Shown here: positions 27,918 to 49,468 of the stretch, in pieces
How the letters are laid out: the number at the start of each line of letters is the position of its first letter
Numbering within the stretch: the first letter of the stretch is position 1
Assembly: GCA_028716245.1 (NCBI GenBank)
Contig: JAQUQW010000005.1
Span: 288 to 64,287 of the forward strand
Reading direction: 5' to 3'
From: Candidatus Omnitrophota bacterium
GTDB lineage: Bacteria > Omnitrophota > Gorgyraeia > Gygaellales > Profunditerraquicolaceae
DNA length: 64,000 nt
Position numbers and translations under genes: made by a program
The notes under the pieces: model-generated
Database searches by the model: none
What the model saw: only the letters and a program-made list of their open reading frames with translations
What the model was told of the DNA's origin: nothing

Positions 27918-28823
27918 ATGAGGCGCAAAAACCCGTCGGTTACTCTTGTCTGTGTATTATCGGTTTTATTTTTATGCTTATCCGGCTGCGACCAGGTTAA
28001 AAAGTTAAAAATTCCTCCCAAAGCTAAATCCTGGCAGCCACAGGGAACGGTGGTTGCCTACGTTAATGACCTGCCTATTACTTCAGAGCAGTTAGACCAG
28101 GAAATCAGCACTTATAATGAATCTACAAGTAATCCCGAAGCTAAAATCAATACTCGCGAACAGAAAGTTGCCTACTTAAACGAAGAGTTAATCCGGCGCT
28201 ACCTTTTGTATTTAGAGGCAAAGGCCAGGGGTCTGGATAGGCAGCCGAAAACCCAGGAACTCTTGGGAAACCTGGAAGTTAATATTTTAGCCAGCCAGAT
28301 TCTCCATGACGAAATAGATAATATAACGGTTACCTCCTCGGAAATTGAGGAATTTTACAATACCTTTAAAGACCAGTACCGTCAGGAAGAAGAAAGAAAA
28401 ATCAGGGAGATTGTTTTGGATAGCGAGACAGAAGCAAAAGATATTCTTATAGAGTTGCTTAAAGGCGCGGATTTCGCTACCTTGGCGATGCAGCGTTCAA
28501 AAGCGCAAAGCGCCTCAGCCGGAGGGGATTTAGGGTTCATCAAAAAGGGCAAGCGCGGCGCGGATTACAGCCGTTTTGATGAAATAGCTTTTTCGCGTTC
28601 ATTGGAAGCAGGCCAGCTAAGCACCGTTTTTAAGGAAAAGAACGGTTACTACATAATAAAGATAGAAGCGATAAAAGGCGGCCAGGTAAGGGCTTTATCC
28701 GAAGTATGGGATGAGATTAAAAGGAGCGTTCTGTTCCTTAAGCAGCAGCAAAAATTAAAGGAAATTACCACGGGCTTATTAAAGAAAACTAAAGTAGTCA
28801 TATACCAGGACCTGATAAAATAA
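27918..28823 (+). CDS. PpiC/parvulin-type peptidyl-prolyl isomerase lipoprotein (PrsA/SurA-like)
   Basis: Lipobox LSGC and a parvulin domain (GGDLGFIKKGKRGADYSRFDEIAF...). Confidence 0.7.
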   Translation: MRRKNPSVTLVCVLSVLFLCLSGCDQVKKLKIPPKAKSWQPQGTVVAYVNDLPITSEQLDQEISTYNESTSNPEAKINTREQKVAYLNEELIRRYLLYLEAKARGLDRQPKTQELLGNLEVNILASQILHDEIDNITVTSSEIEEFYNTFKDQYRQEEERKIREIVLDSETEAKDILIELLKGADFATLAMQRSKAQSASAGGDLGFIKKGKRGADYSRFDEIAFSRSLEAGQLSTVFKEKNGYYIIKIEAIKGGQVRALSEVWDEIKRSVLFLKQQQKLKEITTGLLKKTKVVIYQDLIK

Positions 28824-29728
28824 TGAAAATAGAATTAAGAAGAAAATTCCCCCTGATTATCGCGGTTGTCTGCGGGATCGCGGCGATAATCTTGCTCAAC
28901 CTTTATCTTAAGAGCAGAGAAGGTGAAATCTGGGATAAGATGAGGCAAGCGGAACAAAAGGCCCAGGCTGCCAAACCAAAAGTGACCATGGGGGTTGTAC
29001 TGGTGGCAAAAAGAGAGATTCCGGTGCAGACGCCGATTACCGCCGAAGACCTTACATTTAGACAGGTGCCAATGGAATATATCCAGCCCGGCGCAGTTAC
29101 TTCTCTTGAACAGGTTATCGGCCAGATTGCTTCCGGTCCGATCGGCGCCGAAGAGCAGATACTGAGCACAAAACTTCTTCCTCCCGGAAATATCGGAAAG
29201 ACCCTTTCGGAAATTACGCCTGAAGGCAAGAGAGCAGTAACTGTTTCCGTGGATAACCTTGTCAGTATTGCCGGTTTACTAAAACCCGGAGATTACGTGG
29301 ATATATTCGCGCTCATTGCTTTGCCTAAGAAGACCATATCGCAGACAAAAGAAGAATCAGATCCGCGCTTAATCTCGCTTTTTCAAGGGGTGCAAGTATT
29401 GGCAATGGGAAATGAGCTGGTTGCTTCAAAATCTAAAACAAAAGAAAATGCGGCTACCGCGGCGCAAACCGTTACTTTCGCGCTTACGCCTCAAGAAGCG
29501 GTGTTACTTTCTTTTGTCCAGGAACACGGCAAGATTAAATTAGCCCTGCGTTCCTCGCAGGATACCAAGGTTGAGGCGGTTGCACCGGCTGATTGGGATA
29601 CCCTATTAAATTATTTATCCACCAGCCAGGGGGAGAAAGCCGGTTTGGAAGGCCAGCCGGTAGTTGAGATCTACCGCGGCTTGCAAAAAGAAATTGTTCC
29701 CCTATCAGCATCGAACAAACAAAAATGA
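28823..29728 (+). CDS. cpaB: Flp pilus assembly protein CpaB/RcpC (SAF + CpaB domains)
   Basis: N-terminal TM, SAF-like domain (REIPVQTPITAEDL...), CpaB C-domain; 1 nt overlap with the upstream gene. Confidence 0.75.
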   Translation: MKIELRRKFPLIIAVVCGIAAIILLNLYLKSREGEIWDKMRQAEQKAQAAKPKVTMGVVLVAKREIPVQTPITAEDLTFRQVPMEYIQPGAVTSLEQVIGQIASGPIGAEEQILSTKLLPPGNIGKTLSEITPEGKRAVTVSVDNLVSIAGLLKPGDYVDIFALIALPKKTISQTKEESDPRLISLFQGVQVLAMGNELVASKSKTKENAATAAQTVTFALTPQEAVLLSFVQEHGKIKLALRSSQDTKVEAVAPADWDTLLNYLSTSQGEKAGLEGQPVVEIYRGLQKEIVPLSASNKQK

Positions 29729-31377
29729 GGAATATTCTTAAACTCACATTTCTACTGTTTTTTATTTTGTCCGCGGCGCAGGCCTATCCGGAAGAGTTGA
29801 AAGTTATAACTTTATACGTCGCAGAAGGCAAGGTTGTGTCCGTAAATACTCCTACCCGGGTGGTGATCAATAATCCTAATGTTATTGACGTTACTTCAGT
29901 AAGCAAGGAGGATATGTTGCTGGCGGCCAAAAGTCCAGGCACAACCAATTTAGTCTGGTGGGATGCCGCCGGGCAGCATTCATTGCGGGTAGAGGTTTTT
30001 CAGGAAGATATGAATTTGGTTAAAAAAAGGATAGATACCTTATTAAAAGAATTGAACCTTCCCGGGGTTTTTACGCGAGGCTCGGATAGCGAAGGCAAGG
30101 TTTTACTTTTAGGAAGCGTAAAGCAGCCTGCGGATTTAGAGCGTATCGATACGGCATTAAGTTCGCTTAAAGGGAAAACCGCCAATCTTATCCAGCTAAA
30201 GGAAGAAAGGGCGGTAGTAGAGATTAAAGTGCAAGTCCTGGAATTAAATAAAGATGCCACCTCGAGTTTAGGTTTTAGTTTTCCAGGTTCCATCGATATT
30301 ACCGACATCGGCTCGCCAGGACTAGCTGCCGCAGGCACAAGCTGGGGAAAGTTATTTAAGGTATCGAATGTAGGCCGTGGTGCTTTTAATTTGACATTGG
30401 ATGCTTTGGTTCAGGAAGGCAAGGCGCGCATACTTTCTCAGCCCAGGCTTGCTTGCCAAAGCGGCAAGGAAGCTGAGTTGTTAGTCGGCGGAGAAAAGCC
30501 GATATTTAATACCAGTATAGCGGCTACAAGCGGAGCCAGCGGCACAAATATAGAATATAAAGAATTCGGCATTAAATTAAAAATAAAACCCACAATAACC
30601 GAAGATAAACAGATTAAATTGGCATTGAATGTGGAAGTCAGCGACGTGGGCACAGCGGAAACCATCGGTTCAACGGGCGGGAGCACGACTACGACTACGG
30701 CCTTGGCGTATCCTTTAAGCAAACGCAACGCATCCACCCAGCTTTTTGTTAATGACGGCCAGATGATGGCTATCGGCGGGTTGATCAAGCAAAAGACCGA
30801 GGAGGATGTCCGCAAAACTCCTTTCCTGGGGGATGTACCAGTGTTGGGATTATTTTTTAGGAAAAAGTCAACCAAGGTAGGAGGTGGTCAAGGAGAGAGA
30901 GGCGATACAGAGCTGTTGATTACGCTTACCCCTACTATTATAAAAGAACAACCCGTGCTTGCTGAAACAGCTAAGGCCCAGGCGTCCCCTTCAGCCGTCA
31001 ACGTACCTATAACCAGAGAAGGCGCTAAAAGCGCAGAGTCCTTGCCCGCTAAAACTAAAGTACTTTCTCCTGCCGAAATAACCAGCCAGGCGTTGTCCGA
31101 ATACATGCACAAAATTAGCAAACGCATACAGGACAATTTCGTTTATCCTTGGGCAGCCAAACAAGGCAAAATGCAGGGAACGGTAAGATTAGGTTTGCGG
31201 CTTGATTCTATGGGCACGCTCTTAGAGGTTGAGGTTAAACAGTCATCAGGATACAACATATTTGATGAGAACGCAGTGAGTATGGTTAAAAAATTATCTC
31301 CTTATCCTCCGTTTCCTGCACAGCTCAAGCAAAAGGAACTCCGGGTAGATCTCCCTATCGTCTATAAACTGGATTAA
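29725..31377 (+). CDS. cpaC: Tad secretin CpaC/RcpA with C-terminal TonB_C-like domain
   Basis: Signal peptide, BON-like N-domains, and a secretin domain (...FLGDVPVLGLFFR...TELLITLTP...). A ~140 aa C-terminal extension reads YPWAAKQGKMQGTVRLGLRLDSMGTLLEVEVKQSSGYNIFDENAVSMVKKLSPYPPFP, like a TonB C-terminal domain. Confidence 0.75.
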   Translation: MRNILKLTFLLFFILSAAQAYPEELKVITLYVAEGKVVSVNTPTRVVINNPNVIDVTSVSKEDMLLAAKSPGTTNLVWWDAAGQHSLRVEVFQEDMNLVKKRIDTLLKELNLPGVFTRGSDSEGKVLLLGSVKQPADLERIDTALSSLKGKTANLIQLKEERAVVEIKVQVLELNKDATSSLGFSFPGSIDITDIGSPGLAAAGTSWGKLFKVSNVGRGAFNLTLDALVQEGKARILSQPRLACQSGKEAELLVGGEKPIFNTSIAATSGASGTNIEYKEFGIKLKIKPTITEDKQIKLALNVEVSDVGTAETIGSTGGSTTTTTALAYPLSKRNASTQLFVNDGQMMAIGGLIKQKTEEDVRKTPFLGDVPVLGLFFRKKSTKVGGGQGERGDTELLITLTPTIIKEQPVLAETAKAQASPSAVNVPITREGAKSAESLPAKTKVLSPAEITSQALSEYMHKISKRIQDNFVYPWAAKQGKMQGTVRLGLRLDSMGTLLEVEVKQSSGYNIFDENAVSMVKKLSPYPPFPAQLKQKELRVDLPIVYKLD

Positions 31378-31378
31378 T

Positions 31379-33556
31379 ATGGCCCAGATTATTTCTATTT
31401 TTAGCACCAAAGGCGGCGTAGGAAGGACCTTTATTGTCACCAACCTTGCCATTGCCTTAGCGCAAAAAATAACCAAAGGCAAAAAGGTTTTACTTTTTGA
31501 TACTGATTTACAGTTGCCGGGCAATATGGCGATGCTCTTGAATTTAAAGCCAAAAAAGCCCTTGGTTGATCTTATCCCCGAATGGCGTAAAGGTAATTAT
31601 ACGCCCTCCCAGATTGGCGAATATATCCTTCATTATCCCGCCGCAAGTATGGACCTGCTTCCCCTGGTCTTAACTGCCGAAGAAAGGCCGTATGTAGATG
31701 AAAAATTTATCTCTTGCGTTCTGAGCGATTTGATTAAGGAATACGAATTTATCGTTTGCGATAGCGGCAGGACATTTAATAAAGCGCTTGTGGCTATCCT
31801 TGAACAGACAAATTTGATTTTGCTGGCGATTAATCCCGACATCCTTTCGGTTTATCAGGCAAAAGAAGATATCAAGACACTGCAGTCACTATATTTTCCC
31901 GCCAAGATGATGCGTGTGGTTTTAAACCGCGCGGAAAGCACCGGCGCGGTATCCTGGCAGGAGGTAAGGGCGGCTTTGCCCTGCGATATCATCAGCCGCA
32001 TCCCGTCGGAGGGCAGGGTTGTGGGCTCGGCCTTAAACCGCGGCATACCCGTTGTGTTGGATAGTCCGCGCTCGCGCGTAAGTATTGTGCTGGATAAATT
32101 AGCTGAAGATTTAATCGCTCACCCGGATTTTTTTATCTCCCATAAAAAATTGGAAGCAGCTGTTCCGGCTGTGGAAAAAAAGAAAGAATTTTTAGAAGAG
32201 GATACCTCTTCTTTGGAATCCCTTTCCTTGGGCGGCCGTAAGCCCATTGAGAGAAAACTTACCGGCGAAGAGAAAATAGACGACTTAAAACAACGGGTGC
32301 ACAAGCGCGTTATTCAGGAATTGGATCTACGGCGCCTGGATCGCGTAGCCGGGGACCTGACAAAAATCGCGGATTTACGCCAGAAGACAATGAAAGCGAT
32401 TAATATCGCGCTAACTGATGAAGCCGGGGCGCTTATTTCTTCGCGGGAGGAGCGGGAGCGCCTGATCAAGGAGATCAGTGACGAAATTTTGGGCCTGGGC
32501 CCTTTGGAAGATTTGATCAATGACCCCGAAATTACCGATATTTTAGTTAACAATAAGAGCCAAATCTACATCGAAAAGCACGGCAAGTTAGAGTTAGTTT
32601 CCAAGCGTTTCGTATCCAATGATCAGGTGCGCCAGATAATCGAGCGCATTATCGCGCCCTTAGGCAGGAGGGTGGATGAGTCGGTGCCGATGGTTGACGG
32701 CCGGCTTTCCGACGGTTCGCGGGTTAACGCGATCATTCCTCCGCTTTCCCTTACCGGGCCGACGCTGACGATCAGGAAATTCAGCCAGGAGCGGCTTAAG
32801 GTTAATGATTTAGAACGGCTGAATGCTTTAAATAATACAATGGGAGAATTTCTTAGAGCCTGCGTTGTCTGCCGCAAGAATATAATTATTTCAGGAGGCA
32901 CCGGCTCAGGAAAAACTACGGTTTTAAATGTGCTCTCCGAGTTTGTTCCCGAAGGAGAAAGGGTGATCACGATTGAAGATGCCGCGGAATTAAAGCTCGA
33001 CCACCAGCACTGGATCCGCCTGGAGTCGCGGCCGCCGAATATTGAAGGGAAAGGGGCGATTTTCGTGCAAGATTTGTTCAGGAATTCTCTGCGCATGCGG
33101 CCTGACCGGATTATCATCGGAGAATGCCGCGGCCAGGAAGCTTTGGATATGCTCCAGGCGATGAACACCGGCCACGACGGCTCGATGACTACCATCCATG
33201 CTAACTCCACCCAAGATGTCTTAGCGCGCCTGGATTCGCTGATCCTGATGAGCGGTATCGAGATTCCCCTGCGGGCAATCCGCGAGATGATTGCCTCAAG
33301 CATCGATATGATCGTCCATACCGCCCGTTTTTCCGACGGCTCAAGAAAGATTACCCAGATAACCGAAATTACCGGGATGGCCGACGAGATGCATATCGGA
33401 TTAAACGATATATTTATTTTTGAGCAGTCCGGTATTGACAGCCAGGGAAAAGTCCAGGGAGAGTTTAAAGCCACAGGAATATTGCCGACCTTTCTAGATG
33501 ACCTACGCAAAAGTGGCAGTATCTTTTCAGAAGAAGTATTCAAAAAGAAAGAGTAA
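31379..33556 (+). CDS. fused CpaE/TadZ-like (MinD/ParA-fold) + CpaF/TadA secretion ATPase
   Basis: N-terminal KGGVGRTF deviant Walker A (CpaE-like). The C-terminal T2SSE ATPase has GGTGSGKTT, a DxxE box, an RPDRIIIGECRGQEA Asp box, and an NTGHDGSMTTIHANS His box. One 725 aa ORF. Confidence 0.8.
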   Translation: MAQIISIFSTKGGVGRTFIVTNLAIALAQKITKGKKVLLFDTDLQLPGNMAMLLNLKPKKPLVDLIPEWRKGNYTPSQIGEYILHYPAASMDLLPLVLTAEERPYVDEKFISCVLSDLIKEYEFIVCDSGRTFNKALVAILEQTNLILLAINPDILSVYQAKEDIKTLQSLYFPAKMMRVVLNRAESTGAVSWQEVRAALPCDIISRIPSEGRVVGSALNRGIPVVLDSPRSRVSIVLDKLAEDLIAHPDFFISHKKLEAAVPAVEKKKEFLEEDTSSLESLSLGGRKPIERKLTGEEKIDDLKQRVHKRVIQELDLRRLDRVAGDLTKIADLRQKTMKAINIALTDEAGALISSREERERLIKEISDEILGLGPLEDLINDPEITDILVNNKSQIYIEKHGKLELVSKRFVSNDQVRQIIERIIAPLGRRVDESVPMVDGRLSDGSRVNAIIPPLSLTGPTLTIRKFSQERLKVNDLERLNALNNTMGEFLRACVVCRKNIIISGGTGSGKTTVLNVLSEFVPEGERVITIEDAAELKLDHQHWIRLESRPPNIEGKGAIFVQDLFRNSLRMRPDRIIIGECRGQEALDMLQAMNTGHDGSMTTIHANSTQDVLARLDSLILMSGIEIPLRAIREMIASSIDMIVHTARFSDGSRKITQITEITGMADEMHIGLNDIFIFEQSGIDSQGKVQGEFKATGILPTFLDDLRKSGSIFSEEVFKKKE

Positions 33557-35859
33557 TGAATTTCTTCCGCAAAAACCAACCACTAAACCAACGCAGCCAG
33601 ATTGCCGTGATTATCACCTTTGTCATCGCGGTGATTTTTTTATTTATCGCGGTATTTATAAACCTCGCCAAAGTAAGTCAGACTAAGACTACAACCAGCA
33701 CTGCCGCGGATAAGGCCGCTTTGAGTTTAGCTTCGCAGCTGGGCAGTATGAGCCATTATTATAAGGATAAAGTGTTAAAGCTAAGCGGTTCGTCTTGTGC
33801 CACTCCTCCCTGCCAGGCATGTGACACTGATTGGTTGAGTTTAGCGACAATAATAGTGGCAATAGTTGGAGTTGCAGTTGGTATTTTTATTCCTCCAGTA
33901 GCACTTGGTGCCGCCGTTATAATGGGTGCGATTGCTATCAATTCGGCATTGCTCGGTGGAATAAACACGAAATTTAAGGAAATGACTGGATACAATGCTT
34001 CTCGAGAGAGTACATTATTCCAGGCCCTTCGCGATACCCAAAGCGATGATGTTGAGTTAAAAAGTATGGGGGCAGGCCTTTTTCGTGATGCGGAAACCGG
34101 CAAGGTTTACGATTTAAGTACTATTCCTGAAATGCGCAATGAAAAGAAAGTAAGCAGATTTGCCGCTTGGTATTATTTTTTGAGGCTTCCTTTGGTAGGC
34201 GACGAGGCGATGAAAAGAAGTTTAGATATATTTTTATTGGAGGGGATAAGGAGGTTTGTTGATGTGGATGAGTGGGATTCCAACCAATGGAAGATTAATA
34301 AGTTATCTTATGTGATTGGACCAGGTAATGGAAGCAGCAATTACGATGTGACCTGCTCCGCATCCTGCCCGGATTGGGTAAAAACCCCCGCGCAAGGACT
34401 GTTAAGAATGGTAAGGATGGATACTTCGGATAATGTCTACGGTGGATTTTTAAAGGATAAACTTCTTAGCTTATTACAGCGGTTAGAATGCGCATATGGT
34501 TTAACCTTTTGTAGCTCATTAGGGATATGCAGCAGTCTGACAGTAAGTTGCGGCGACGTAAATAACCTGATTGAAGATTTGAGAGAGTTTTTGTTAAGAA
34601 GCAAAGAGGTGTTAAACCTGCCGGTTTCTAAGCGGCTCGAACAATTAACACAATGGTTTCCGCTATGGTATAATTTTAAATATCATTGCGATCATCGATG
34701 GTTTAAAGACAGCTCGGGTAACTGTATCGATCCAAATAGCGACCCCAACCTAAATGACGACTATAAATACGATATTTATTTGCGCTTGACCCGCGACCAG
34801 ATTAAAATTAAGAGTTGGATTGCCGAGCTGCAAACTTTAAACAATAATAGAATTGTTCCGGATATAGCAAAGAAACACGGGGAATGTACTTGGGGCAGAG
34901 GTGCTTCAGTTAGTAGTACCTGTTATACGCAATACGGTTGCAGCACTTCTGAATGCGGTTGTCACTGTTGCGGCAGCGATTGCAGCGATTGTTGCTGTAA
35001 TACCTGTTGTTATCCGTCTTCTAGAAAATCACCCTGTGCTTGGGAAGGAACATATTATACTTGCGATCAGAATCCGCCCGTCTGTAGGAGTGGAGATTTA
35101 TATGGCGCAGTCCCAGGCTGGTGCGGTTCTCGCGCAGACCATGCAGGGTGCCATAGTAACTGTGGATGTGATGTCCAAAATTTTGATACTACTACTGGTG
35201 GAGCAAAAGATTTCCAAGGCCAGTTATCCTGGCGTCCTCCTATGGCGGGAAATTCGGATGGCACTGATAAGCCGACTGAAGTTGATCAGGCAATCAGAAT
35301 CCTGGGTGCCTTAAATGATGATCTCGCCAGGATAAAGACGTCTATTGGTGATTTAGCGGATAGCGTAGCGGCTAATCTGTCCAACACAGACGCTAAAAGA
35401 AATGAGATTATTTATGCCTGGAAGGATAAGCCCAAGGCGGATGGCAGCCAGCAATTTTCTCACTTTGTCAAAGTAAAGATTACTGGTTACCCTGAGAAAT
35501 TACCCAATATTACTGAAAGTACGGGATGGGGGTGGGTAGGAATTATTCCTGCTCCACAGAAGTGCCGCACGTTAAACGATTACCAGGGTGATTTTACGAT
35601 AAGCACCTGGCGTTATGACCAGGATCAGCCAACGGATATAGCCGGATGGAAACTGAAGCGCAGGAAAACACCCTCTACCGCTGAATTTGTCCCTGCACAA
35701 TTAGAAAAAATAGTAGCGGATGTCCAGGATAACGCTAAGATAGATTCAACCCAAAGTTATGTTGCTTCGATTTTAGACTACTCGATTGCCAGTTGCAGCC
35801 AAGCGCATTACGGACCGGAAAAAAGCGACATTTATATAACCGGAACTCAATGTGAATAA
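33556..35859 (+). CDS. TadG/TadE-like large pilus-associated protein with cysteine-rich region
   Basis: N-terminal TM followed by AADKAALSLASQ (Tad PF13400-like). 767 aa. A Cys cluster reads CGCHCCGSDCSDCCCNTCCYP. Confidence 0.5.
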   Translation: MNFFRKNQPLNQRSQIAVIITFVIAVIFLFIAVFINLAKVSQTKTTTSTAADKAALSLASQLGSMSHYYKDKVLKLSGSSCATPPCQACDTDWLSLATIIVAIVGVAVGIFIPPVALGAAVIMGAIAINSALLGGINTKFKEMTGYNASRESTLFQALRDTQSDDVELKSMGAGLFRDAETGKVYDLSTIPEMRNEKKVSRFAAWYYFLRLPLVGDEAMKRSLDIFLLEGIRRFVDVDEWDSNQWKINKLSYVIGPGNGSSNYDVTCSASCPDWVKTPAQGLLRMVRMDTSDNVYGGFLKDKLLSLLQRLECAYGLTFCSSLGICSSLTVSCGDVNNLIEDLREFLLRSKEVLNLPVSKRLEQLTQWFPLWYNFKYHCDHRWFKDSSGNCIDPNSDPNLNDDYKYDIYLRLTRDQIKIKSWIAELQTLNNNRIVPDIAKKHGECTWGRGASVSSTCYTQYGCSTSECGCHCCGSDCSDCCCNTCCYPSSRKSPCAWEGTYYTCDQNPPVCRSGDLYGAVPGWCGSRADHAGCHSNCGCDVQNFDTTTGGAKDFQGQLSWRPPMAGNSDGTDKPTEVDQAIRILGALNDDLARIKTSIGDLADSVAANLSNTDAKRNEIIYAWKDKPKADGSQQFSHFVKVKITGYPEKLPNITESTGWGWVGIIPAPQKCRTLNDYQGDFTISTWRYDQDQPTDIAGWKLKRRKTPSTAEFVPAQLEKIVADVQDNAKIDSTQSYVASILDYSIASCSQAHYGPEKSDIYITGTQCE

Positions 35860-38430: not shown

Positions 38431-38443
38431 AAGGGAGGATAAA

Positions 38444-41724: not shown

Positions 41725-41739
41725 GTAAAAGGGAGTAAG

Positions 41740-43094: not shown

Positions 43095-43098
43095 TTAA

Positions 43099-43365
43099 GT
43101 GCAAAATAAAAAGGTGTTTCTCGACGATAATAAGAGTTTAAGAATGAATTATTTTATGCAGTTTATAATGGCTTTTAAAAAGGCCGATAGAAGCCATCTT
43201 GCGCAAAAAAATTTTTCTGATAAAAAAGCGCAATCAATATTTGAATATGTCATATTAACGGCAGTTGTAGTGACGACTGTTTTAATTTTTGGGCCGTATT
43301 TCGGTAAGATAAAAGATTCTTGTGACAAAGCTTTTAATGCCGCGGTTACGGAGATAGTAAAATGA
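43099..43365 (+). CDS. divergent Flp-type pilin-like protein (true start probably internal)
   Basis: ...KKAQSIFEYVILTAVVVTTVLIF... pilin-like segment. Confidence 0.4.
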   Translation: MQNKKVFLDDNKSLRMNYFMQFIMAFKKADRSHLAQKNFSDKKAQSIFEYVILTAVVVTTVLIFGPYFGKIKDSCDKAFNAAVTEIVK

Positions 43366-43505
43366 GAAACAAAGCGCAAAGCACAATTGAATACGCGTTA
43401 TTAATTGCCATTGTGGCAGCGGCATTTTTGGCGATGAATGCGTATATGCAGCGTTCGGTACAGGCAAATTTTAACGTAATTGAAGAGCAGATAAATGCGC
43501 AGTAA
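43362..43505 (+). CDS. Flp-family pilin (47 aa; below the ORF-track size cutoff)
   Basis: MRNKAQSTIEYALLIAIVAAAFLAMNAYMQR...; ATGA overlap with the upstream gene. Confidence 0.6.
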   Translation: MRNKAQSTIEYALLIAIVAAAFLAMNAYMQRSVQANFNVIEEQINAQ

Positions 43506-43526
43506 TTAGAAGGAGGGAGGTTAAAG

Positions 43527-43694
43527 ATGCGTAACAAAAAGGGCCAGAGTATCTTGGAGTACGTGATTGTATTAACCGTCATAGTTATAGCGGTTGCTCT
43601 AGCGGCGACCAAGTGGATTAAACCCGCGGTTGATCAGGGATTAAATGATGCTTCAAAAAGTATTAATAATGCTACAGGGCAATTGCCAAAATAA
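43527..43694 (+). CDS. Flp-family pilin (55 aa) with canonical G/XXXXEY site
   Basis: MRNKKG|QSILEYVIVLTVIVIAVALAA...; RBS AGGAGGGAGG. Confidence 0.7.
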   Translation: MRNKKGQSILEYVIVLTVIVIAVALAATKWIKPAVDQGLNDASKSINNATGQLPK

Positions 43695-43717
43695 TTATTT
43701 TAGGGGAGGTGAATAAG

Positions 43718-44071
43718 ATGTTTAACAAAAAGGGCCAGAATACAGCGGAATACGCGATACTTATCGCGTTGATAATCGCGGCAGCAGTGGGAATGCAGAC
43801 TTACGTTAAAAGGGGCTTACAGGGAAGGGTGCATGAGGCGGTTAGGAATACCGGCCAGGCACTACCAGATGTGGGAGGTGCCAGTTTGAGTTTTAGCGGC
43901 AACCAGTATGAACCGTATTATACTGAGTCTGACACAAAAGTAAAAAGCGCCAGAACTGCTCAGGAAACACTGGGTAACCGCGGCCAGATTACCCGCTCTA
44001 ACGTACAAGAAGCAACCACGGTTGATATTGGAGGAACTGAGAAAGTCAATAGCACAGCCGGAGCTGATTAA
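43718..44071 (+). CDS. Flp-type pilin with ~80 aa C-terminal extension
   Basis: MFNKKG|QNTAEYAILIALIIAAAVGMQTYVKRGLQGR...; RBS GGGGAGGTG. Confidence 0.65.
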   Translation: MFNKKGQNTAEYAILIALIIAAAVGMQTYVKRGLQGRVHEAVRNTGQALPDVGGASLSFSGNQYEPYYTESDTKVKSARTAQETLGNRGQITRSNVQEATTVDIGGTEKVNSTAGAD

Positions 44072-44084
44072 GGAGGTGAATAAG

Positions 44085-44429
44085 ATGTTTAACAAAAAGG
44101 GCCAGAGCACATTGGAATACGCATTGATAACCGCGGTGATAATTGCCGGGCTTTTACTGATGCAGCATTATATGAAGCATGGTTACGCCGGAAGATTGAA
44201 ATCAGCCAGTGATGATATCGGCGAGCAATATGACCCTAGCAAATATAATGCAACATTTAACGTAACCAACAAGAGTTATACGCAACAGACTGCTACAGGC
44301 GGAGCCACAACCCAACAGTATCTTGATTTAGGCGATGGTTCTAATGCTGGTAGGGTGCAGAAAAAAGAGAGTGTTGCCAACGAAACGATTGATGCCTGGG
44401 GCCAGAATGAGAGCTTGTATAGTAAATAA
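44085..44429 (+). CDS. Flp-type pilin with C-terminal extension
   Basis: MFNKKG|QSTLEYALITAVIIAGLLLMQHYMKHGYAGR...; RBS AGGAGGTG. Confidence 0.65.
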   Translation: MFNKKGQSTLEYALITAVIIAGLLLMQHYMKHGYAGRLKSASDDIGEQYDPSKYNATFNVTNKSYTQQTATGGATTQQYLDLGDGSNAGRVQKKESVANETIDAWGQNESLYSK

Positions 44430-44763
44430 AACAATCGGGATACGCAGGGCGCAAAGCGTAGCTGAATATAGCGTTTGTTTGGCACTAGTTTTAGCCGCGC
44501 TTTTGGGGATGCAGATTTATGTAAAAAGAGGCTTGCAGGGAAGATACAAAGAATTGGTTGACCAGGCGGCTAAACAGGCCGCAAGCGCGGCTCAATTGGC
44601 TACAAGCCCGAAACAATATGAGCCGTACTATGTTCAGGACAGATTTAGAGTCAGCCAGTCTAAAATAACCAATGAAACTAGCAGTTCCCCCGGCAAAATG
44701 AATCGGGATTTTGTTGAGGATAGCACGGCAGTTAAAGGCACAGCCACAAGGGATGTGCAATAA
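44407..44763 (+). CDS. Flp-type pilin-like protein with C-terminal extension (start uncertain)
   Basis: ...IRRAQSVAEYSVCLALVLAALLGMQIYVKRGLQGRYKE... Confidence 0.5.
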   Translation: MRACIVNKTIGIRRAQSVAEYSVCLALVLAALLGMQIYVKRGLQGRYKELVDQAAKQAASAAQLATSPKQYEPYYVQDRFRVSQSKITNETSSSPGKMNRDFVEDSTAVKGTATRDVQ

Positions 44764-44764
44764 A

Positions 44765-45940
44765 ATGCGTAAAAGAGCCCAGAGCATAAATGAATATGTG
44801 TTGGTGATTGCCCTAGTTACCTTAGCTGGTATAGGTATGCAGATTTATATTAAACGGGGCATACAGGGTATAGTGAAGACCTCTGCCGACAGATTAGCCG
44901 GTGAAAAAGGAGATTCAGTTGTGTATACGGGCAGTGCCAAAAGCATTTTACCCCGTGCGCAGTGGAATCCCGTTGCCATCGCGTACGCGGATAATAAGCT
45001 CAACGGCGGATTTTTTGTGGCTGAGGTAACCGGCAACCAAGTTTATTATAATCTTTATTCCGATAGCAGCAACCTTAATAATAAAACAGTTATTGGCGGG
45101 CAGGACTTAGCCAGCGGTGATTTTACCAGTTATGACTGGGAGGGTTATGTTGACGCGGTTTATGATAAAAACGGCAATTTAATTCAGAGTTTTACTCCCA
45201 AGCAGGCAAGGGCTGACTATGCTCCATATGAAATACTCTCATTAAATACTGCGGCGAATAAATCCATGGTCCAAAGTGGAGTGATGGAATTAGGCCTGGT
45301 TGCCTTTGACCAGAAAGATCATCCGTTGAAATTTACGGCGGACAAAAAAGTTATCGTACATACTGTTTCAAAGCATAGCATCAGCCCGCAAAATTTAGCC
45401 GCGGCGAATTGGCATCCGGCGATGACAGCGTATCAGGTGAAAATGGTACAAAATAATATTCCAGGATTTATCCAGGCAGAAGTGCAAGGCAATATGGTCT
45501 ACTATTATACATTCACCACCGATATCAAAAACAAGATACTTTTCGGCGGAGAGAATCTGCACACGGGGGATTTTACCCAATTCGGACCGGATGGTTTTCC
45601 CATCTCAACCGTAGATAGTAATCTCACTGTGCTCAGGACCTACAGCGGTTATGTAACCGATCCGGTAACCAAGGAGATTACGGGTATAATCGGCAGCGAC
45701 GGCAACATTTATGGGCAAAACCAGATAGTAACAATAAGCCCGGTGCTTCCAACCACTGGCCCGGCAACGGTTGCTTCTCCGATGACAACAAAGACCATCG
45801 ACCATGACACGACTCATGTTACCGGAGCATGGACCGCGGTTTATAAATTGGAAAACGCAAACACATTCGGCGCTAGGGACAAAACCGGTTTAAATAATAA
45901 TAATTTAAATGCTGGTAACAACGTGACGGGGCACCAATGA
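44765..45940 (+). CDS. giant Flp-type pilin (391 aa) with duplicated ~130 aa C-terminal repeat module
   Basis: MRKRAQSINEYVLVIALVTLAGIGMQIYIKRGIQG..., then two homologous blocks (...FFVAEVTGNQVYYNLYSD...GGQDLASGDFTSYDWEGY... / ...FIQAEVQGNMVYYYTFTTD...GGENLHTGDFTQFGPDGF...). Confidence 0.6.
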   Translation: MRKRAQSINEYVLVIALVTLAGIGMQIYIKRGIQGIVKTSADRLAGEKGDSVVYTGSAKSILPRAQWNPVAIAYADNKLNGGFFVAEVTGNQVYYNLYSDSSNLNNKTVIGGQDLASGDFTSYDWEGYVDAVYDKNGNLIQSFTPKQARADYAPYEILSLNTAANKSMVQSGVMELGLVAFDQKDHPLKFTADKKVIVHTVSKHSISPQNLAAANWHPAMTAYQVKMVQNNIPGFIQAEVQGNMVYYYTFTTDIKNKILFGGENLHTGDFTQFGPDGFPISTVDSNLTVLRTYSGYVTDPVTKEITGIIGSDGNIYGQNQIVTISPVLPTTGPATVASPMTTKTIDHDTTHVTGAWTAVYKLENANTFGARDKTGLNNNNLNAGNNVTGHQ

Positions 45941-46326
45941 TAACACGGGTTAGAAAACACAGATTAAACAAAGCAAAGGCGCAATCGACATTAGAATACG
46001 CCGTAGTCGTTGCCTGCGTAGTGGCAGCGCTTTTAGGTATGCAGTTTTACATCAGGCGGGGAATACAGGGGAAATTAAGGCAGGCAGCGGATGAGACCGG
46101 TGAGCAGTATACGCCGTTGAACGTGGATTCGAATATTACCACGCAAACAACGTCGACTACAACGGTAACGCAAAGTTTAACTCCATTAAACAGGGCGCCC
46201 GGCGTTCCTTTAAATGATGAGTATGATTTACCTGTATACGGAATAAAGACAGATACAAGTATTGATGAAACCACTACAAAAGACGGACAAGAAACATTAG
46301 GAGAGTTTGAAAATGGCTTATTTTAA
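45937..46326 (+). CDS. Flp-type pilin with Thr-rich C-terminal extension
   Basis: ...KAKAQSTLEYAVVVACVVAALLGMQFYIRRGIQGK...TTQTTSTTTVTQS... Confidence 0.6.
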   Translation: MITRVRKHRLNKAKAQSTLEYAVVVACVVAALLGMQFYIRRGIQGKLRQAADETGEQYTPLNVDSNITTQTTSTTTVTQSLTPLNRAPGVPLNDEYDLPVYGIKTDTSIDETTTKDGQETLGEFENGLF

Positions 46327-47326
46327 TAAAAAGGCGCAGAGTTTGACTGAGTTAGCTACTTTTGGCTCGGTACTTTTATTGGTGCTCTCCTTTTTTATCA
46401 GTTATGGGATGCGTTATAATTACCAGCAGGAGATACAGATGCGCGCTTTTCGCACCGCCCTTGCGCAGGCCTATACTAATACCAACCGGCCGGATGCCTC
46501 AGCTTCGGTTGTGTTGGTTGATGATAGGCATATACCGGATCCCCGCGATATGTTTGGCGCGGGTAGTATCGTTCCGGTGGAAGGCGGCGCTGAGGTAACC
46601 TGGGGCAATACTATGCAGGATGGATATCTCAATGTTACCAATCCTCCGCTTTTGCCCACGATAAAATACGTATTTAATGATCGGAATCCTGCAAACAGAG
46701 CGGAACGTGAATATAAAACCGCCGGTTATAATTATATTGATAATGCTTATCCATTCTATGTTATATTGCCTGGTAATACCGCGCCACAGTTAATAACCTG
46801 GGTAAATGTAAGGAATTACCAGCCTACCCCGGATTCGCCGCAACAGGCTATGGTATTGTTACCGAATCAAGATAAAGAGGTAATTACTGAGCTTTATTTG
46901 AAGACGGCGGGCCCGACGCCGGGATATATAAAATTTCAGATTATCGGAGTCAGGACTAATCCGCCCAATGGCGGTGATGGGACGCCCATTGACCAGATAT
47001 ATTTATTAAGTCCATCTTCAGGAGAGATCAACCCTAATTATATGCAATTAAATAATGATGTTGATATGAATGGTACTCCCGATGTAACTCCTGCTAATAT
47101 TCAAGGGCTATTATTGGAGGATAAGCAGGATATCCGGCGCAGCGGAACTATTACAATACAAGAGACTCCCGGGAAAACTATAAGCACCAGCACATACAGT
47201 TTTAAGGATAAAGCCGGGAATCCCACGACAATTACCCATAAAATTAGGAGTAGTTCAGGGGTGGAAGAGATTAATTTTCCTTTTGAGAGGGGAGGTGTTC
47301 CTTCGACATGGACAACACAAAAGTAA
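46313..47326 (+). CDS. TadE/TadF-like pseudopilin (339 aa)
   Basis: MAYFNKKAQSLTELATFGSVLLLVLSFF (TadE-like N-terminus), then a large periplasmic domain. Confidence 0.55.
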   Translation: MAYFNKKAQSLTELATFGSVLLLVLSFFISYGMRYNYQQEIQMRAFRTALAQAYTNTNRPDASASVVLVDDRHIPDPRDMFGAGSIVPVEGGAEVTWGNTMQDGYLNVTNPPLLPTIKYVFNDRNPANRAEREYKTAGYNYIDNAYPFYVILPGNTAPQLITWVNVRNYQPTPDSPQQAMVLLPNQDKEVITELYLKTAGPTPGYIKFQIIGVRTNPPNGGDGTPIDQIYLLSPSSGEINPNYMQLNNDVDMNGTPDVTPANIQGLLLEDKQDIRRSGTITIQETPGKTISTSTYSFKDKAGNPTTITHKIRSSSGVEEINFPFERGGVPSTWTTQK

Positions 47327-47565
47327 AAGCCCAAGTTGCGCTTGAGTTTGTCACCGCTTTTATTTGCACCATTCTTTTCTTGGTGGCAACCGCGCAAATA
47401 TTTGTCTGGTTCGGAAACACCATCGTTAACCGGAATAAAGCGTATGAAGAGACTCGCGCTGCACAGTGGCAATGGTTTAATCAGCCCGGTGATCCAATTA
47501 ACCCGGTGATAGTGGATTTCTATAATCAAAGCGATTATCCTCTAGATATATTCCATAAGAAATAA
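47308..47565 (+). CDS. TadE-like small pseudopilin
   Basis: MDNTKVKAQVALEFVTAFICTILFLVATAQIF... Confidence 0.5.
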   Translation: MDNTKVKAQVALEFVTAFICTILFLVATAQIFVWFGNTIVNRNKAYEETRAAQWQWFNQPGDPINPVIVDFYNQSDYPLDIFHKK

Positions 47566-47568
47566 AAA

Positions 47569-47739
47569 ATGAAAAAAAAAGGGATGAGCGTGGTAGAATA
47601 TAGTTTATTGATTGCCATAGTGATTGCCGGACTTTTGGCAATGCAGGTTTATGTTAAACGGGCGGTTAATGGACGCTGGAAGGAAACCGGAGATGTGTTT
47701 GGTTTTGGCAGGCAGACGGATAAAACGCTTCTAAAATGA
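47569..47739 (+). CDS. Flp-family pilin (56 aa); A9 homopolymer in codons 2-4
   Basis: MKKKG|MSVVEYSLLIAIVIAGLLAMQVYVKRAVNGRW...; ATGA overlap with tadB. Confidence 0.7.
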   Translation: MKKKGMSVVEYSLLIAIVIAGLLAMQVYVKRAVNGRWKETGDVFGFGRQTDKTLLK

Positions 47740-48581
47740 GACTACTAATTATCTTGCTTATTTTCGGATCGATCGGCGGTTTGGCCTATGAATTAATTCC
47801 CCTGCTTTTAGGCCGCTATTCTCAACTCCAGAGTAAACGCATGGAGAAAGCCTCCAAAGAGCTGCATCAGATGTTTATTTATACCGAAAAACACCGTTTA
47901 CTGCCGATGTTTACGATTACGCCTCTGGCGTTGGGCGCGCTGGGATTCATTATTTCGCATAACCTGCTGGGTGTTTTGGTGGGCGCGGGACTGGGTTTGT
48001 TATTGCCCCGGATATGGATTAAAAATGTTGGGCGCAAAAGGCAGAATGATTTTGCCAGGCAGCTGGTAGATGCGCTTATGCTTCTTTCCAGTTCTCTTAG
48101 GGCAGGGATGAGTTTACCCCAGGCATTTGAAGTACTTACCGAAGAGATGCCCGCGCCAATCAGTGATGAGTTCGCCTTGGTGATCAAAGAAAATAAAATG
48201 GGCGTGACTTTAGAGGATTGTTTGGCGCATCTCAAGCAAAGGATTCCCCTGGATGATTTGGAATTATTGACTACCGCCATAAGCATTTCCCGGGAAACCG
48301 GAGGTGACTTGACTGAAATTTTCGCCAACTTAGTGCAGACCATCAGGGAAAAAAGAAAATTAGATGACCGGGTAAAAGTACTGACTGTGCAGGGCCGCCT
48401 GCAAGGGGCGATTATGGGGCTTTTGCCAATCGCGTTCGCGATTTTCATTTATTTCATTAACCCGCACAATTTTGACATAATGTTTAGTGATAAAACCGGC
48501 CAGATGCTGCTTGTTTGGGCGGTGGTTTCCGAAGTAATCGGGGTAATCCTTATCCGGAAATTAAGCCGGGTGGAGATATAA
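47736..48581 (+). CDS. tadB: Flp pilus assembly inner-membrane protein TadB (T2SSF domain)
   Basis: 281 aa, TM-cytoplasmic domain-TM topology, T2SSF-like. Confidence 0.75.
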   Translation: MRLLIILLIFGSIGGLAYELIPLLLGRYSQLQSKRMEKASKELHQMFIYTEKHRLLPMFTITPLALGALGFIISHNLLGVLVGAGLGLLLPRIWIKNVGRKRQNDFARQLVDALMLLSSSLRAGMSLPQAFEVLTEEMPAPISDEFALVIKENKMGVTLEDCLAHLKQRIPLDDLELLTTAISISRETGGDLTEIFANLVQTIREKRKLDDRVKVLTVQGRLQGAIMGLLPIAFAIFIYFINPHNFDIMFSDKTGQMLLVWAVVSEVIGVILIRKLSRVEI

Positions 48582-48583
48582 AG

Positions 48584-49468
48584 ATGGAACTGGCGCTGAT
48601 TATTTTATTTTTGTTTACCAGTATCGGATTTGTGGCTTATTACGTTTCCAATCGAAAGCTGGTCGAAGAAGTGCATTTGCCTTCCGAGATTACCGGCGGA
48701 CCGGGGTCGGGGCTTAAGAAGGCATTTAATTTTAAAAATATTTTAAGCGGGCCAGCCAGTTTTATCGAGCGTTTGTTCGGCAAATCAAGCCTTTCTTTAC
48801 CTACGAGCGATTTGCATAAACGGTTAACTTCCTCAAATAAAATAATGAGCGTCAGCCAATTTATGGTATTCAAATTTTTAATGGCCGCGGCAGTGCCGTT
48901 GGCTGCCCTGATTATCGCTCAAGCAAAACCAGCGTTGCTGCTGCTTTGCGCCGGCATCGGTTTTATTTTACCGGATATCTGGCTGAATAAGCGGATCAAG
49001 AAAAGACGCGCCTTGATTGTAAAAGACCTGCCTTTGGTAATCGACCTTTTGAATATTTGCGTGGGGGCCGGTCTGGATTTTATGGTGGCGGTTAACCGGG
49101 TAATCCAGGAATTCAGGCCTTGCGCGCTTATTGAAGAAATGAAGATAATGACCAACGAAATCCAAATGGGCATTTCCCGGCGTGACGCGTTAAAGAATAT
49201 GTCCGCCCGCATTAATAACCCTGAGATCAGCTCGTTTGTGAGGACTCTTCTGCAGGCAGACAGGATCGGCACGCCGATAAGCGAGGCATTGAAGATGCAG
49301 TCAGAGGAGATCCGCCTGCGCTGGTTCCAAAAAGGCGAAGAAATGGCTTTGAAAGCCCCGATTAAGCTCTTATTCCCCCTGCTAATATTTATCCTTCCGG
49401 TGGTTCTAATCATTGTGGCCGGCCCTATTTTGATCCAGTTTACCAAGGGCGGGATGATGAAGTTTTAG
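48584..49468 (+). CDS. tadC: Flp pilus assembly inner-membrane protein TadC (T2SSF domain)
   Basis: Starts at MELALIILFLF; T2SSF-like (GAGLDFMVAVNRV...). Confidence 0.75.
   Translation: MELALIILFLFTSIGFVAYYVSNRKLVEEVHLPSEITGGPGSGLKKAFNFKNILSGPASFIERLFGKSSLSLPTSDLHKRLTSSNKIMSVSQFMVFKFLMAAAVPLAALIIAQAKPALLLLCAGIGFILPDIWLNKRIKKRRALIVKDLPLVIDLLNICVGAGLDFMVAVNRVIQEFRPCALIEEMKIMTNEIQMGISRRDALKNMSARINNPEISSFVRTLLQADRIGTPISEALKMQSEEIRLRWFQKGEEMALKAPIKLLFPLLIFILPVVLIIVAGPILIQFTKGGMMKF

Follow-up and report, generated by a model that had tools for sequence, protein, structure and literature searches.

The forward strand of a 64,000-nucleotide stretch of contig JAQUQW010000005.1 from a Candidatus Omnitrophota bacterium (this whole stretch is referred to here as the window) carries, at positions 27918-49468, genes for a PpiC-type isomerase, CpaB/RcpC, a secretin ending in a TonB_C domain, a fused ATPase, a TadG-like protein, eleven Flp-like pilins, TadB and TadC. 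In our assessment the region is most probably one copy of the Tad/Flp (type IVc) pilus machine, in a form conserved among Omnitrophota and placed immediately upstream of a giant gene. The plus-strand genes are tightly packed, their stop and start codons touching or overlapping. Domains were called by Pfam and NCBIfam scans of the open reading frames (ORFs), with the curated or gathering cut-offs as thresholds. A preliminary description made from the nucleotide sequence had proposed a Tad/Flp-type system, and this was borne out by the domain scans, which identified a CpaF-type ATPase, TadB and TadC, RcpC/CpaB and a secretin; among the profiles that it had suggested, T2SSE, AAA_31, Secretin, TonB_C and T2SSF found matches. 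The locus starts at about 25.7 kb rather than at 27918, since a 692-residue protein encoded at 25732-27810 belongs to it. Gene order was compared in twelve Omnitrophota loci (L001-L010, L028 and L029) by phmmer searches with the window proteins and from precomputed Pfam annotations.

The fused motor ATPase

The motor ATPase (31379-33556, plus strand) is a single ORF of 725 amino acids, characterized by Pfam, sequence matches in the PDB, AlphaFold2 and Foldseek. Pfam places CbiA/AAA_31 at residues 1-191 and T2SSE at residues 372-646 (E 8e-62), and the domain map comprises a MinD/ParA-like domain, putatively of the TadZ/CpaE type (1-255), a disordered linker (~264-293) and the NTD1, NTD2 and CTD of CpaF (~296-725). 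In PDB sequence searches, residues 1-239 matched a MinD structure (E 9e-16), residues ~1-245 matched structures of the MinD/ParA family, and the C-terminal 425 amino acids matched the Caulobacter CpaF structures (E 1e-115, 45-46% identity). AlphaFold2 gave a confident alpha/beta MinD-like fold for residues 1-255, a predicted local distance difference test score (pLDDT) below 50 at 264-293, and helices at 296-349 followed by the CpaF domains. The top Foldseek matches of this model were CpaF and MinD/ParA/FleN (TM-scores to target 0.8-0.9), the fold match to CpaF having an E of 2e-34 and 46% identity over 415 columns.

The N-terminal domain carries the motif KGGVGRT, and its P-loop begins at residue 11, which leaves no room for the receiver-like domain (atypical receiver domain, ARD). 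Canonical CpaE/TadZ proteins consist of a receiver-like domain followed by the ATPase. An exhaustive search with residues 1-320 against 1.8 billion representative proteins found that the nearest unfused relatives are proteins of 380-430 amino acids that align from their residue ~140, which is this canonical layout. We therefore read the N-terminal domain as a TadZ/CpaE-type domain that would have lost its receiver-like part, although it scored best against MinD, ParA and FleN structures. Consistent with this, in Tad loci outside the phylum (Acidobacteriota, Gammaproteobacteria, Hydrogenedentota) the two halves of the query match adjacent, separate CpaE (380-443 amino acids) and CpaF (437-463 amino acids) proteins. 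The CpaF structure paper describes a disordered, dispensable NTD0 followed by a three-helix NTD1 (PMC11300603); judged by position, the MinD-like domain stands in the place of NTD0.

A CpaE-CpaF fusion had been proposed from the sequence and is upheld by its homologues: among the best 120 database clusters, ~114 are full-length fusions of 700-740 amino acids with the same architecture, at 58-96% identity, from independent NCBI, JGI, ENA and Logan assemblies. Where the source names the organism, it is almost always an omnitrophotan. The homologue alignment shows no variation at K11, G12, G13 and G15, which belong to a deviant Walker A motif, and no conservation in the segment ~250-300. More distant fused proteins in the representative search have N-terminal domains of 26-39% identity. 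One of them, from an unclassified bacterium (L030, GCA_043825615.1), is a fused CpaE-CpaF of 716 amino acids at 10001-12151 whose N-terminal domain is 26% identical to that of the window; its Tad locus has no secretin nearby and its own Peptidase_A24 gene at 21380-21886. The fusion therefore occurs outside Omnitrophota and is not always tied to the loss of TadV.

The secretin with a TonB_C tail

The secretin (29725-31377, plus strand), of the RcpA/CpaC type by Pfam and NCBIfam, begins with a signal peptide and contains T2SS-T3SS_pil_N (27-91), Secretin (227-407, E 1e-41) and, beyond a K/E/A/P-rich linker (408-470), TonB_C (471-549; PF03544, E 5e-17). The tail exceeds both curated cut-offs for TonB_C, with 54 bits against a cut-off of 27 for tonB_Cterm (TIGR01352), and in sequence weakly matches the HasB and TonB C-terminal domains. 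This second proposed fusion likewise stood: among the matches listed, all 120 homologues carry both Secretin and TonB_C, with TonB_C ending within 3 residues of the C-terminus and K/E/A/P-rich linkers of 21-104 amino acids. The secretins of the Acidobacteriota, Gammaproteobacteria and Hydrogenedentota Tad loci match only residues 44-407 of the window protein and thus have no tail. A GspD model scores 142 bits on the window secretin, against a cut-off of 351.

The ORF bears the NCBI name "TonB family protein", which we reject in favour of a secretin with a TonB_C tail, because its N-terminus consists of a cleavable signal peptide followed by secretin domains, with no inner-membrane anchor of the TonB type. 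Pfam scans of the window ORFs found no ExbB, ExbD, TolQ or TolR domains. A full-text literature search found no paper describing a secretin with a TonB_C tail, and the word "TonB" does not occur in the main texts of the two Omnitrophota papers (PMC10066038, 10.1101/2023.11.21.568195) or of the Bdellovibrio preprint (10.64898/2026.07.08.737194) discussed below.

Putative pilins, platform and periplasmic proteins

A motif scan of the 996 open frames of the window found exactly eleven class-III/Flp-type N-termini, all on the plus strand at 43225-47578 and none elsewhere, which sustains the earlier proposal of a large pilin set. The ORFs concerned lie within 43099-47739. Each consists of a short basic leader ending in Gly or Ala, then Gln (once Met), Ser/Asn/Val, two residues, Glu, Tyr/Leu/Phe and about 20 hydrophobic residues, with a cleavage-type motif [KR][GA]/Q-S-x-x-E-Y (a slash marks the predicted cleavage site). 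Position +1 is Gln in ten and Met in the eleventh, p11. In the pilin consensus of related loci, the invariance of Gln+1 and Glu+5 arises partly by construction, since that consensus was conditioned on the search pattern. Four of the eleven are Flp-sized (mature length ~42-51 amino acids), five have ~100-115 amino acids and two are large (339 and ~395 amino acids). After the helix, six share a segment MQxY[VI][KR]RGxQG and are therefore paralogues. Because Pfam thresholds are unmet (Flp_Fap reached 13 bits against a cut-off of 32.2, and matches to Class_IIIsignal and N_methyl were likewise sub-threshold), their identity as putative type IVc pilins rests on N-terminal motif, size and position.

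In gene order, the Flp-sized p1 (43144-43365, mature length ~44 amino acids) has KKA/QSIFEY followed by a hydrophobic helix and has orthologues in L004, L005, L007, L008 and L010. It is followed by the Flp-sized p2 (43362-43505, 47 amino acids, NKA/QSTIEY) and p3 (43527-43694, 55 amino acids, KKG/QSILEY, with a weak N_methyl match), and by p4 (43709-44071, ~117 amino acids, KKG/QNTAEY, Class_IIIsignal E 0.0017). Several of the pilin ORFs as first listed begin at internal ATGs and not at the upstream TTG or GTG codons: p5 (44085-44429, KKG/QSTLEY; listed from 44022) likely starts at ATG 44085 because its orthologues begin at that Met, and p6 (44407-44763, RRA/QSVAEY; listed from 44335) likely starts at an internal ATG. 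The large pilin p7 (44753-45940, ~395 amino acids, KRA/QSINEY) has a C-terminal domain that, by eye, is duplicated internally at ~95-141 and 248-292 (GFxxAEVxGNxVYY ... GGxxLxxGDFT). Next come p8 (45937-46326, 129 amino acids, AKA/QSTLEY), with a Thr/Ser-rich stretch, and two putative minor pilins, p9 (46307-47326, 339 amino acids, KKA/QSLTEL), in a TadE/F-like position and with no Pfam TadE match, and p10 (47308-47565, 85 amino acids, VKA/QVALEF). The Flp-sized p11 (47569-47739, 56 amino acids, KKG/MSVVEY) has a weak Flp1_like match. No ORF of the window matched TadE (PF07811) in the Pfam scan.

The 767-residue TadG-like protein (33556-35859, plus strand), a putative large minor pilin or tip protein, scores 20.0 bits for the Tad domain against a cut-off of 22.3. 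A hydrophobic helix lies at its N-terminus, and a second hydrophobic stretch, at residues 88-130, resembles a glycine zipper. Residues ~445-540 form a very Cys-rich segment (e.g. CGCHCCGSDCSDCCCNTCC). In L004-L006, L009 and L010 its orthologue comes after the ATPase, in L007 and L008 after the minor pilins.

Two inner-membrane platform proteins, each with one T2SSF domain, close the gene series: TadB (47736-48581, E 5e-18) and TadC (48584-49468, E 7e-15; likely start ATG 48584, ORF listed from 48515), the latter followed by a terminator-like hairpin at 49510-49536. At the other end, CpaB/RcpC (28823-29728, plus strand), the periplasmic alignment protein, has an N-terminal transmembrane helix and SAF and RcpC domains (RcpC E 4e-25), and scores 175.9 bits against a cut-off of 71 for the CpaB equivalog TIGR03177. 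Directly upstream of it, here and in every Omnitrophota locus extending far enough, lies the PpiC-type peptidyl-prolyl isomerase (27918-28823, plus strand; Rotamase_2 E 2.8e-14), a predicted lipoprotein with the lipobox LSGC (Cys24) and an N-terminal part resembling SurA_N.

The prepilin peptidase

The preliminary description had found no tadV/cpaA gene in the window, and Pfam scans together with a TadV profile run on the six-frame translation confirm this. The scans, which covered essentially all ORFs of at least 110 amino acids in the 64-kb window, found no Peptidase_A24. A single TadV sequence gave a best E of ~0.1 in the six-frame translation of the window, and a profile of six TadV sequences, seeded by the A24 gene of L030, found nothing there at E up to 10 and nothing in the six-frame translations of the twelve Omnitrophota loci (best E 2.8). 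As a positive control, the same profile found TadV in eight of nine Tad loci from outside the phylum, at E 2e-9 to 2e-79. Since the profile succeeds in eight of these nine loci and in neither the window nor the twelve relatives, the absence of TadV from the neighbourhoods of Omnitrophota loci is systematic. Among the matches listed in the supplements of Seymour et al. (PMC10066038), K02654 appears in two genomes only, both of which have type IVa pilus genes.

Gene order in related loci

The recurring core in Omnitrophota comprises PpiC, CpaB, secretin-TonB_C, the fused ATPase, DUF192, a homologue of the 692-residue protein, ~10-11 pilins in the order of the window, TadB and TadC. DUF192/UPF0127, absent from the parts first listed, is a protein of 113 amino acids without a signal peptide (42474-42815, plus strand; Pfam) and a conserved member of the locus, found in 12 of 12 Omnitrophota loci. 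It follows the ATPase directly in L001, L002, L003, L007, L028 and L029, and in the relatives with ATPases 59-72% identical to that of the window (L001, L002, L007, L028, L029) the series ATPase-DUF192-pilins-TadB-TadC is contiguous. Homologues also lie near two Acidobacteriota Tad loci, in L011 (3810-4328, minus strand) and L017 (2-466, minus strand), each ~2 kb from CpaB and with an N-terminal extension of ~65 amino acids. The association of DUF192 with Tad loci may thus extend beyond Omnitrophota.

In the window, the GT-C/radical SAM/GT2 cassette described below does interrupt the locus, as had been proposed; the bipartite layout inferred from it is not a property of the system. Between ATPase and DUF192, after the TadG-like gene, lies a three-part enzyme of 796 amino acids (36040-38430, plus strand; Glyco_hydro_3 + PIG-L) that would process N-acetylglucosamine (GlcNAc) in the cytoplasm. 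It has no signal peptide and contains a partial BshB1/PIG-L-like region (32-197), a NagZ-like beta-N-acetylhexosaminidase of glycoside hydrolase family 3 (GH3; 218-450) and a PIG-L deacetylase (556-725). This ORF had been taken for a tetratricopeptide repeat (TPR) protein; the real TPR gene lies at 38444-38995 (plus strand; TPR_1 E 1e-28) and encodes a small periplasmic protein of 183 amino acids with a signal peptide (AYA/QD). The N-terminus of this protein has no lipobox Cys and hence no lipoprotein signal; the protein is the only candidate for a TadD-like role. Next come a GT-C glycosyltransferase of PMT_2/ArnT type with ~10 transmembrane helices (38975-40603, minus strand; PMT_2 E 4e-11), a radical SAM/SPASM enzyme that reaches no NCBIfam equivalog threshold (40651-41724, plus strand) and a GT2 enzyme resembling polyprenyl-phosphate glycosyltransferases (41740-42477, plus strand), closest to ArnC and PgfS and below the thresholds of both.

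The exact layout of the window, inserted cassette included, recurs in L005 and L009 (ATPase 93% identical). L004 and L010 (ATPase 93-94% identical) have the TadG-like, GH3/PIG-L, TPR and DUF192 genes and lack PMT_2, radical SAM and GT2, and in L001 and L028 the GH3/PIG-L, PMT_2 and GT2 genes lie upstream of PpiC. GH3/PIG-L homologues adjoin the locus in L001, L004-L006, L008-L010 and L028. Because of these gene orders, the bipartite layout is best read as a recent, lineage-specific insertion of accessory genes between ATPase and DUF192 rather than a design feature, and the glycosylation genes as frequent but optional neighbours.

The 692-residue protein (25732-27810, plus strand), also missing from the first parts list and assigned by orthology, has a helix-turn-helix (HTH)-like N-terminus, an E/K/A-rich coiled coil at ~90-255 and a C-terminal domain of unassigned type. 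It has no Pfam or NCBIfam match; its L001 orthologue matches HTH_32. Orthologues occur in most far-extending Omnitrophota loci, directly after DUF192 in L001, L002, L003, L007 and L008 and before PpiC in L005, L009 and L010, and the protein is probably a regulator of the locus. About 100 bp upstream of its gene, at 25507-25632 (plus strand), 32 amino acids match the C-terminal part of the DUF192 profile (18 bits, E 9e-4). On this thin match, which was made by the profile only and not recovered by tblastn with a single protein, the site may hold the remnant of a DUF192 copy, which synteny would place here, left behind by the rearrangement that moved the gene.

Two relatives, L029 and L007, have a second, unfused T2SSE ATPase; the window has no such extra ATPase. 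L029 also encodes, at 17356-19959 between minor pilins and TadB, a Peptidase_M23 protein (peptidoglycan endopeptidase) of 867 amino acids, which suggests that some versions of the machine carry a component degrading the cell wall.

The adjacent giant gene

A giant ORF, likewise not in the first parts list, starts at ATG 52211 on the plus strand and runs off the window at 64000 after more than 3,929 codons, the frame being open from 52208 to the end without a stop codon. It is a conserved downstream partner: the gene directly after TadC, within ~0.6 kb, encodes 32,492 amino acids in L001 and 9,694 in L028. The N-terminus in the window resembles a signal peptide (transmembrane segment 22-41, AQA/M) and is followed at ~199-330 by Peptidase_C39, with its Cys in NNCG and His in EHFVLV. 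A Pfam scan of the other ~3,600 residues found no match.

In the window the gap between TadC and the giant ORF is ~2.7 kb and holds an ORF6N-domain gene (49595-50107, plus strand), an ORF6N fragment (50154-50498, minus strand) and a Cys-rich, zinc-ribbon-like protein of 332 amino acids without a family match (50517-51515, minus strand). Since the giant gene begins at most ~0.6 kb past TadC in L001 and L028, the segment 49595-51515 looks like a mobile-element insertion.

Discussion

The behaviour of homologous systems suggests how a Tad/Flp machine of this form could work. After insertion of the prepilins into the inner membrane, an A24 peptidase with its gene outside the locus would cleave off their short leaders, just as PilD processes the Tad pilins of Bdellovibrio. 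A hexamer of the fused ATPase, acting on TadB/TadC, would polymerise a fibre of short pilins. A tip complex, made up of the TadG-like protein and the larger minor pilins, would prime this fibre; minor pilins of the TadE/F/G type have been proposed to form such complexes (PMC12075869). The fibre would leave through the CpaB ring and then the secretin. The TadZ-like domain could couple positioning or recruitment covalently to the motor, and the 13-14 TonB_C tails of a secretin ring might, through beta-strand augmentation, fasten the ring to peptidoglycan or to a partner in the periplasm. The lipoprotein PpiC and the TPR protein could be folding or pilotin-type helpers for secretin or pilins. More speculatively, GH3/PIG-L, the GT2 enzyme near ArnC and PgfS, and the GT-C enzyme may supply a lipid-linked amino sugar for periplasmic glycosylation, possibly of the Thr/Ser-rich pilins. 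The likely role of the machine, together with the adjacent giant exoprotein, would be attachment to host or prey cells.

Several observations weigh against this account. None of the pilin, TadE or TadG ORFs reaches a Pfam gathering score (Flp_Fap, Class_IIIsignal, N_methyl, TadE, Tad). No TadZ structure was among the top structural matches of the N-terminal domain of the ATPase, most homologues carry Arg at the P-loop position of this domain where Lys is canonical, and AlphaFold2 confidence is low at residues 525-629 of the CpaF core. The available sequence holds no prepilin peptidase, so that pilin processing is an assumption, and the anchoring partner of the TonB_C tail is putative. Glycosylation genes were not seen near the L002, L007 and L029 loci, and their products may act on the envelope instead of the pilus. 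Any part in adhesion or predation is one that we infer from the neighbouring genes and from the literature on Omnitrophota and other predators.

The locus could instead encode a machine resembling a type II secretion system, which mainly exports or displays the giant protein together with its associated hydrolases and in which the "pilins" form a short pseudopilus piston with no external adhesive fibre. A preprint by West-Roberts et al. called the locus type II secretion system-like and linked it to giant genes (10.1101/2023.11.21.568195), and its position directly before giant ORFs (9,694 amino acids in L028, 32,492 in L001, more than 3,929 in the window), the Peptidase_M23 protein in the TadG slot of L029 and the effector delivery proposed for the Tad-like Kil system of Myxococcus xanthus (PMC8460266, PMC12075869) would agree with such a function. 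However, the ATPase is CpaF-like (46% identical to CpaF) and scores 48-50 bits with GspE models whose cut-offs are 617-630; two single-domain T2SSF proteins, a Tad/Epd-specific feature (PMC6668835), stand where a type II system has one GspF; CpaB/RcpC is present, and GspC, GspL and GspM domains were not found in any scanned ORF; and the pilins are short and Flp-like, with E5-Y6. By model scores and scans of the window ORFs, GspE, a GspF with two T2SSF domains and GspC/L/M are all missing, and passage of a folded protein of 10-30 thousand residues through a secretin channel seems improbable. We consider a secretion machine of this kind unlikely. An artefactual origin of the fused architectures or the split layout, through assembly errors or frameshifts that joined neighbouring genes, has next to no chance of being correct. 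The window does come from a metagenome-assembled genome, and CpaE and CpaF are adjacent separate genes in other phyla, so that a lost stop codon could mimic a fusion. The ~114 full-length ATPases of 700-740 amino acids, however, come from independent assemblies, with identities as low as 58%, linkers that vary and flanks that are conserved; TonB_C stops no more than 3 residues short of the C-terminus in each of the 120 secretin homologues listed; and L005 and L009 repeat the gene order with the inserted cassette. Simple read-through would also have retained the ~140-residue N-terminal domain of free CpaE, which the fused protein lacks. On the conservation in homologues, the gene order and this missing domain we reject the artefact, and the possibility raised in the preliminary description, that the fusions were assembly joins of separate genes, is dismissed by the agreement of homologues from NCBI, JGI, ENA and Logan assemblies. 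Judging from these comparisons, both fusions are genuine conserved features of the phylum and not assembly errors.

Maturation of the pilins invites a further alternative, in which a peptidase outside the A24 family, either DUF192 or the C39 domain of the giant protein, acts at the locus and the system is a Tad derivative with a new processing step. The missing TadV match in the window and twelve relatives, set against eight of nine other Tad loci with the same profile, speaks for it, as do the linkage of DUF192 in all twelve Omnitrophota loci and near two Acidobacteriota Tad loci, the +1 residues of the pilins (Gln in ten, Met in p11), and the Cys and His motifs of Peptidase_C39 at the start of the giant ORF. 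On the other side, C39 enzymes cleave after Gly-Gly, not after Lys-Gly or Lys-Ala, which is at odds with the pilin sites. The C39 domain follows a signal-peptide-like N-terminus and would be extracytoplasmic, on the wrong side of the membrane for prepilin leaders, which are cut at the cytoplasmic face. On this predicted topology and specificity we reject the C39 domain as the missing peptidase. DUF192 is a small soluble beta-protein whose closest structures have neither a known function nor a protease signature. Moreover, tadV is known as a "loner" gene, treated by Denise et al. as one that can lie away from the other genes (PMC6668835), and Bdellovibrio uses PilD in trans (10.64898/2026.07.08.737194). 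A non-A24 peptidase at the locus is thus very improbable. Doubtful, though with better prospects than such a peptidase, is a distinct type IVc subclass physically coupled to the giant exoprotein, in which the TonB_C ring docks a strand of a partner, DUF192 is a motor subunit and maturation is free of TadV. If it were true, the giant protein or its C39 region, or else a component of the outer membrane, could provide the docked, TonB-box-like strand, DUF192 would be an obligate new cytoplasmic subunit acting on the fused motor, and the Gln+1 pilins would be matured without a dedicated TadV.

As a probable Tad/Flp pilus, the locus shares with the canonical systems (Aggregatibacter tad, Caulobacter cpa, Pseudomonas rcp/tad) CpaF/TadA, TadB and TadC, CpaB/RcpC and an RcpA-type secretin. 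By motif and size it also has, like them, putative short pilins of the Flp type, with G/A at -1 and E5-Y6, and larger putative minor pilins resembling TadE/F/G. Unlike the window, these systems have a separate TadZ/CpaE with an N-terminal ARD, a secretin without TonB_C, a lipoprotein as TadD and usually TadV/CpaA within the locus (eight of nine comparison loci); they have no PpiC, DUF192 or 692-residue HTH protein and far fewer pilin genes. A published parallel is Bdellovibrio bacteriovorus, whose TadZA hybrid has no receiver-like domain and a flexible linker, and whose tad loci hold no TadV, PilD processing Flp1 (10.64898/2026.07.08.737194). Both share a ParA/MinD-like TadZ without the atypical receiver domain, joined by a flexible linker to TadA; the Walker A-like K/RGGXGXS/T of Bdellovibrio fits KGGVGRT in the window; and both lack a local TadV and belong to organisms that are, for Omnitrophota presumably, predatory or host-dependent. 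The window ATPase has the TadZA-type layout (TadZ region without ARD, linker, TadA) as matched by description and not by sequence orthology. A further trait of TadZA is that its TadZ-linker region interacts with a polarity hub, RomR. In contrast, the tad genes of Bdellovibrio are dispersed, with tadC separate, whereas the window locus is compact, and no TonB_C tail on RcpA is apparently reported there. The M. xanthus Kil system (PMC8460266, PMC12075869) is likewise a Tad derivative in a predator, with an ATPase, KilF, that has an extra N-terminal domain (FHA), an atypical secretin, many minor pilins forming alternative tips and a local prepilin peptidase that is partly dispensable, so that a second peptidase is invoked. 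It differs in that the added domain is FHA rather than MinD-like, that the TadV homologue KilA is in the cluster, that the system is truly split into two distant clusters, and that TonB_C, PpiC and DUF192 are lacking.

The novelty first claimed for the locus was overstated, since the locus type was already in the literature and a TadZ-TadA fusion without a local TadV has been described in Bdellovibrio. West-Roberts et al. first described a conserved secretion-like locus upstream of Omnitrophota giant genes, with gspD, gspE, gspF, rcpC, a Rotamase_2 isomerase and many small genes with class III signal peptides (10.1101/2023.11.21.568195), and this is the locus type of the window. Seymour et al. 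(2023) reported Tad complexes in most Velamenicoccia, expressed in V. archaeovorus LiM, and found that the TadB and TadC of Omnitrophota group with those of Bdellovibrionales (PMC10066038); a 2026 preprint reports that Tad cassettes flank giant genes. The loci of West-Roberts et al. and Seymour et al. come from the same phylum and agree with the window in gene set and in position immediately before the giant gene, and differ from it in lacking the extra cassette (TadG-like, GH3/PIG-L, TPR, GT-C, radical SAM, GT2) and the 2.7-kb insertion (with ORF6N, among others) that separates the giant gene from TadC. The word "secretin" does not occur in the main texts of these two papers, nor "fusion" or "prepilin" in that of Seymour et al., and the TadZ-CpaF fusion, the TonB_C tail, DUF192 and the absence of TadV appear not to be described in them. 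Thus the locus type itself and the parallel of a fused TadZ-TadA ATPase are already known, and what is new, as far as we searched, is the TonB_C tail of the secretin, the invariable DUF192 by the motor, the 692-residue HTH protein and the phylum-wide absence of TadV from the locus.

Omnitrophota are abundant, uncultured and ultra-small, and are thought to be predators or parasites; the chief genomic hints at their mode of attachment to hosts come from the Tad-like locus and the giant genes. The corrected parts list, with a fused motor, a TonB_C-tailed secretin, a PpiC lipoprotein and DUF192 phylum-wide and no TadV near the loci examined, supplies targets for structural prediction, cryo-electron tomography and heterologous assays. 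That a fused motor and a missing local peptidase also occur in Bdellovibrio hints that the Tad systems of predators have a design in common, whether shared or reached by convergence. The advance is modest in practice, since both the locus and the type of fusion had been reported before.

Other features of the window

Three further genes not in the first parts list lie upstream of the locus on the minus strand and, by Pfam, encode a response regulator-GGDEF protein (21419-22354), a histidine kinase (22359-23837) and a FIST sensor protein (23839-25026). The same trio, in the same order and orientation, precedes the Tad locus of L029 (ATPase 67% identical), where the unfused T2SSE ATPase lies beside it. 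From this conserved neighbourhood alone, 21419-25026 is a possible regulatory module of the pilus locus.

Promoter and terminator scans gave counts not above those of shuffled controls, the only sites of note being 25672-25700, the hairpin after TadC (49510-49536) and 52016-52044. An Rfam scan at gathering thresholds found no riboswitches in the window and returned tRNAs only: tRNA-Glu(CTC) at 25123-25199, between the FIST gene and the first Tad-associated genes, tRNA-Leu(GAG) at 21257-21339 and tRNA-Gln(CTG) at 5-77. Further upstream, an envelope polysaccharide group (15946-21204, plus strand) comprises an O-antigen ligase-like Wzy_C protein, a GT4 enzyme, an amine oxidase-like flavoprotein and two GT2 enzymes, and an ORF of 200 amino acids at 5886-6488 (minus strand) carries an rve integrase core.

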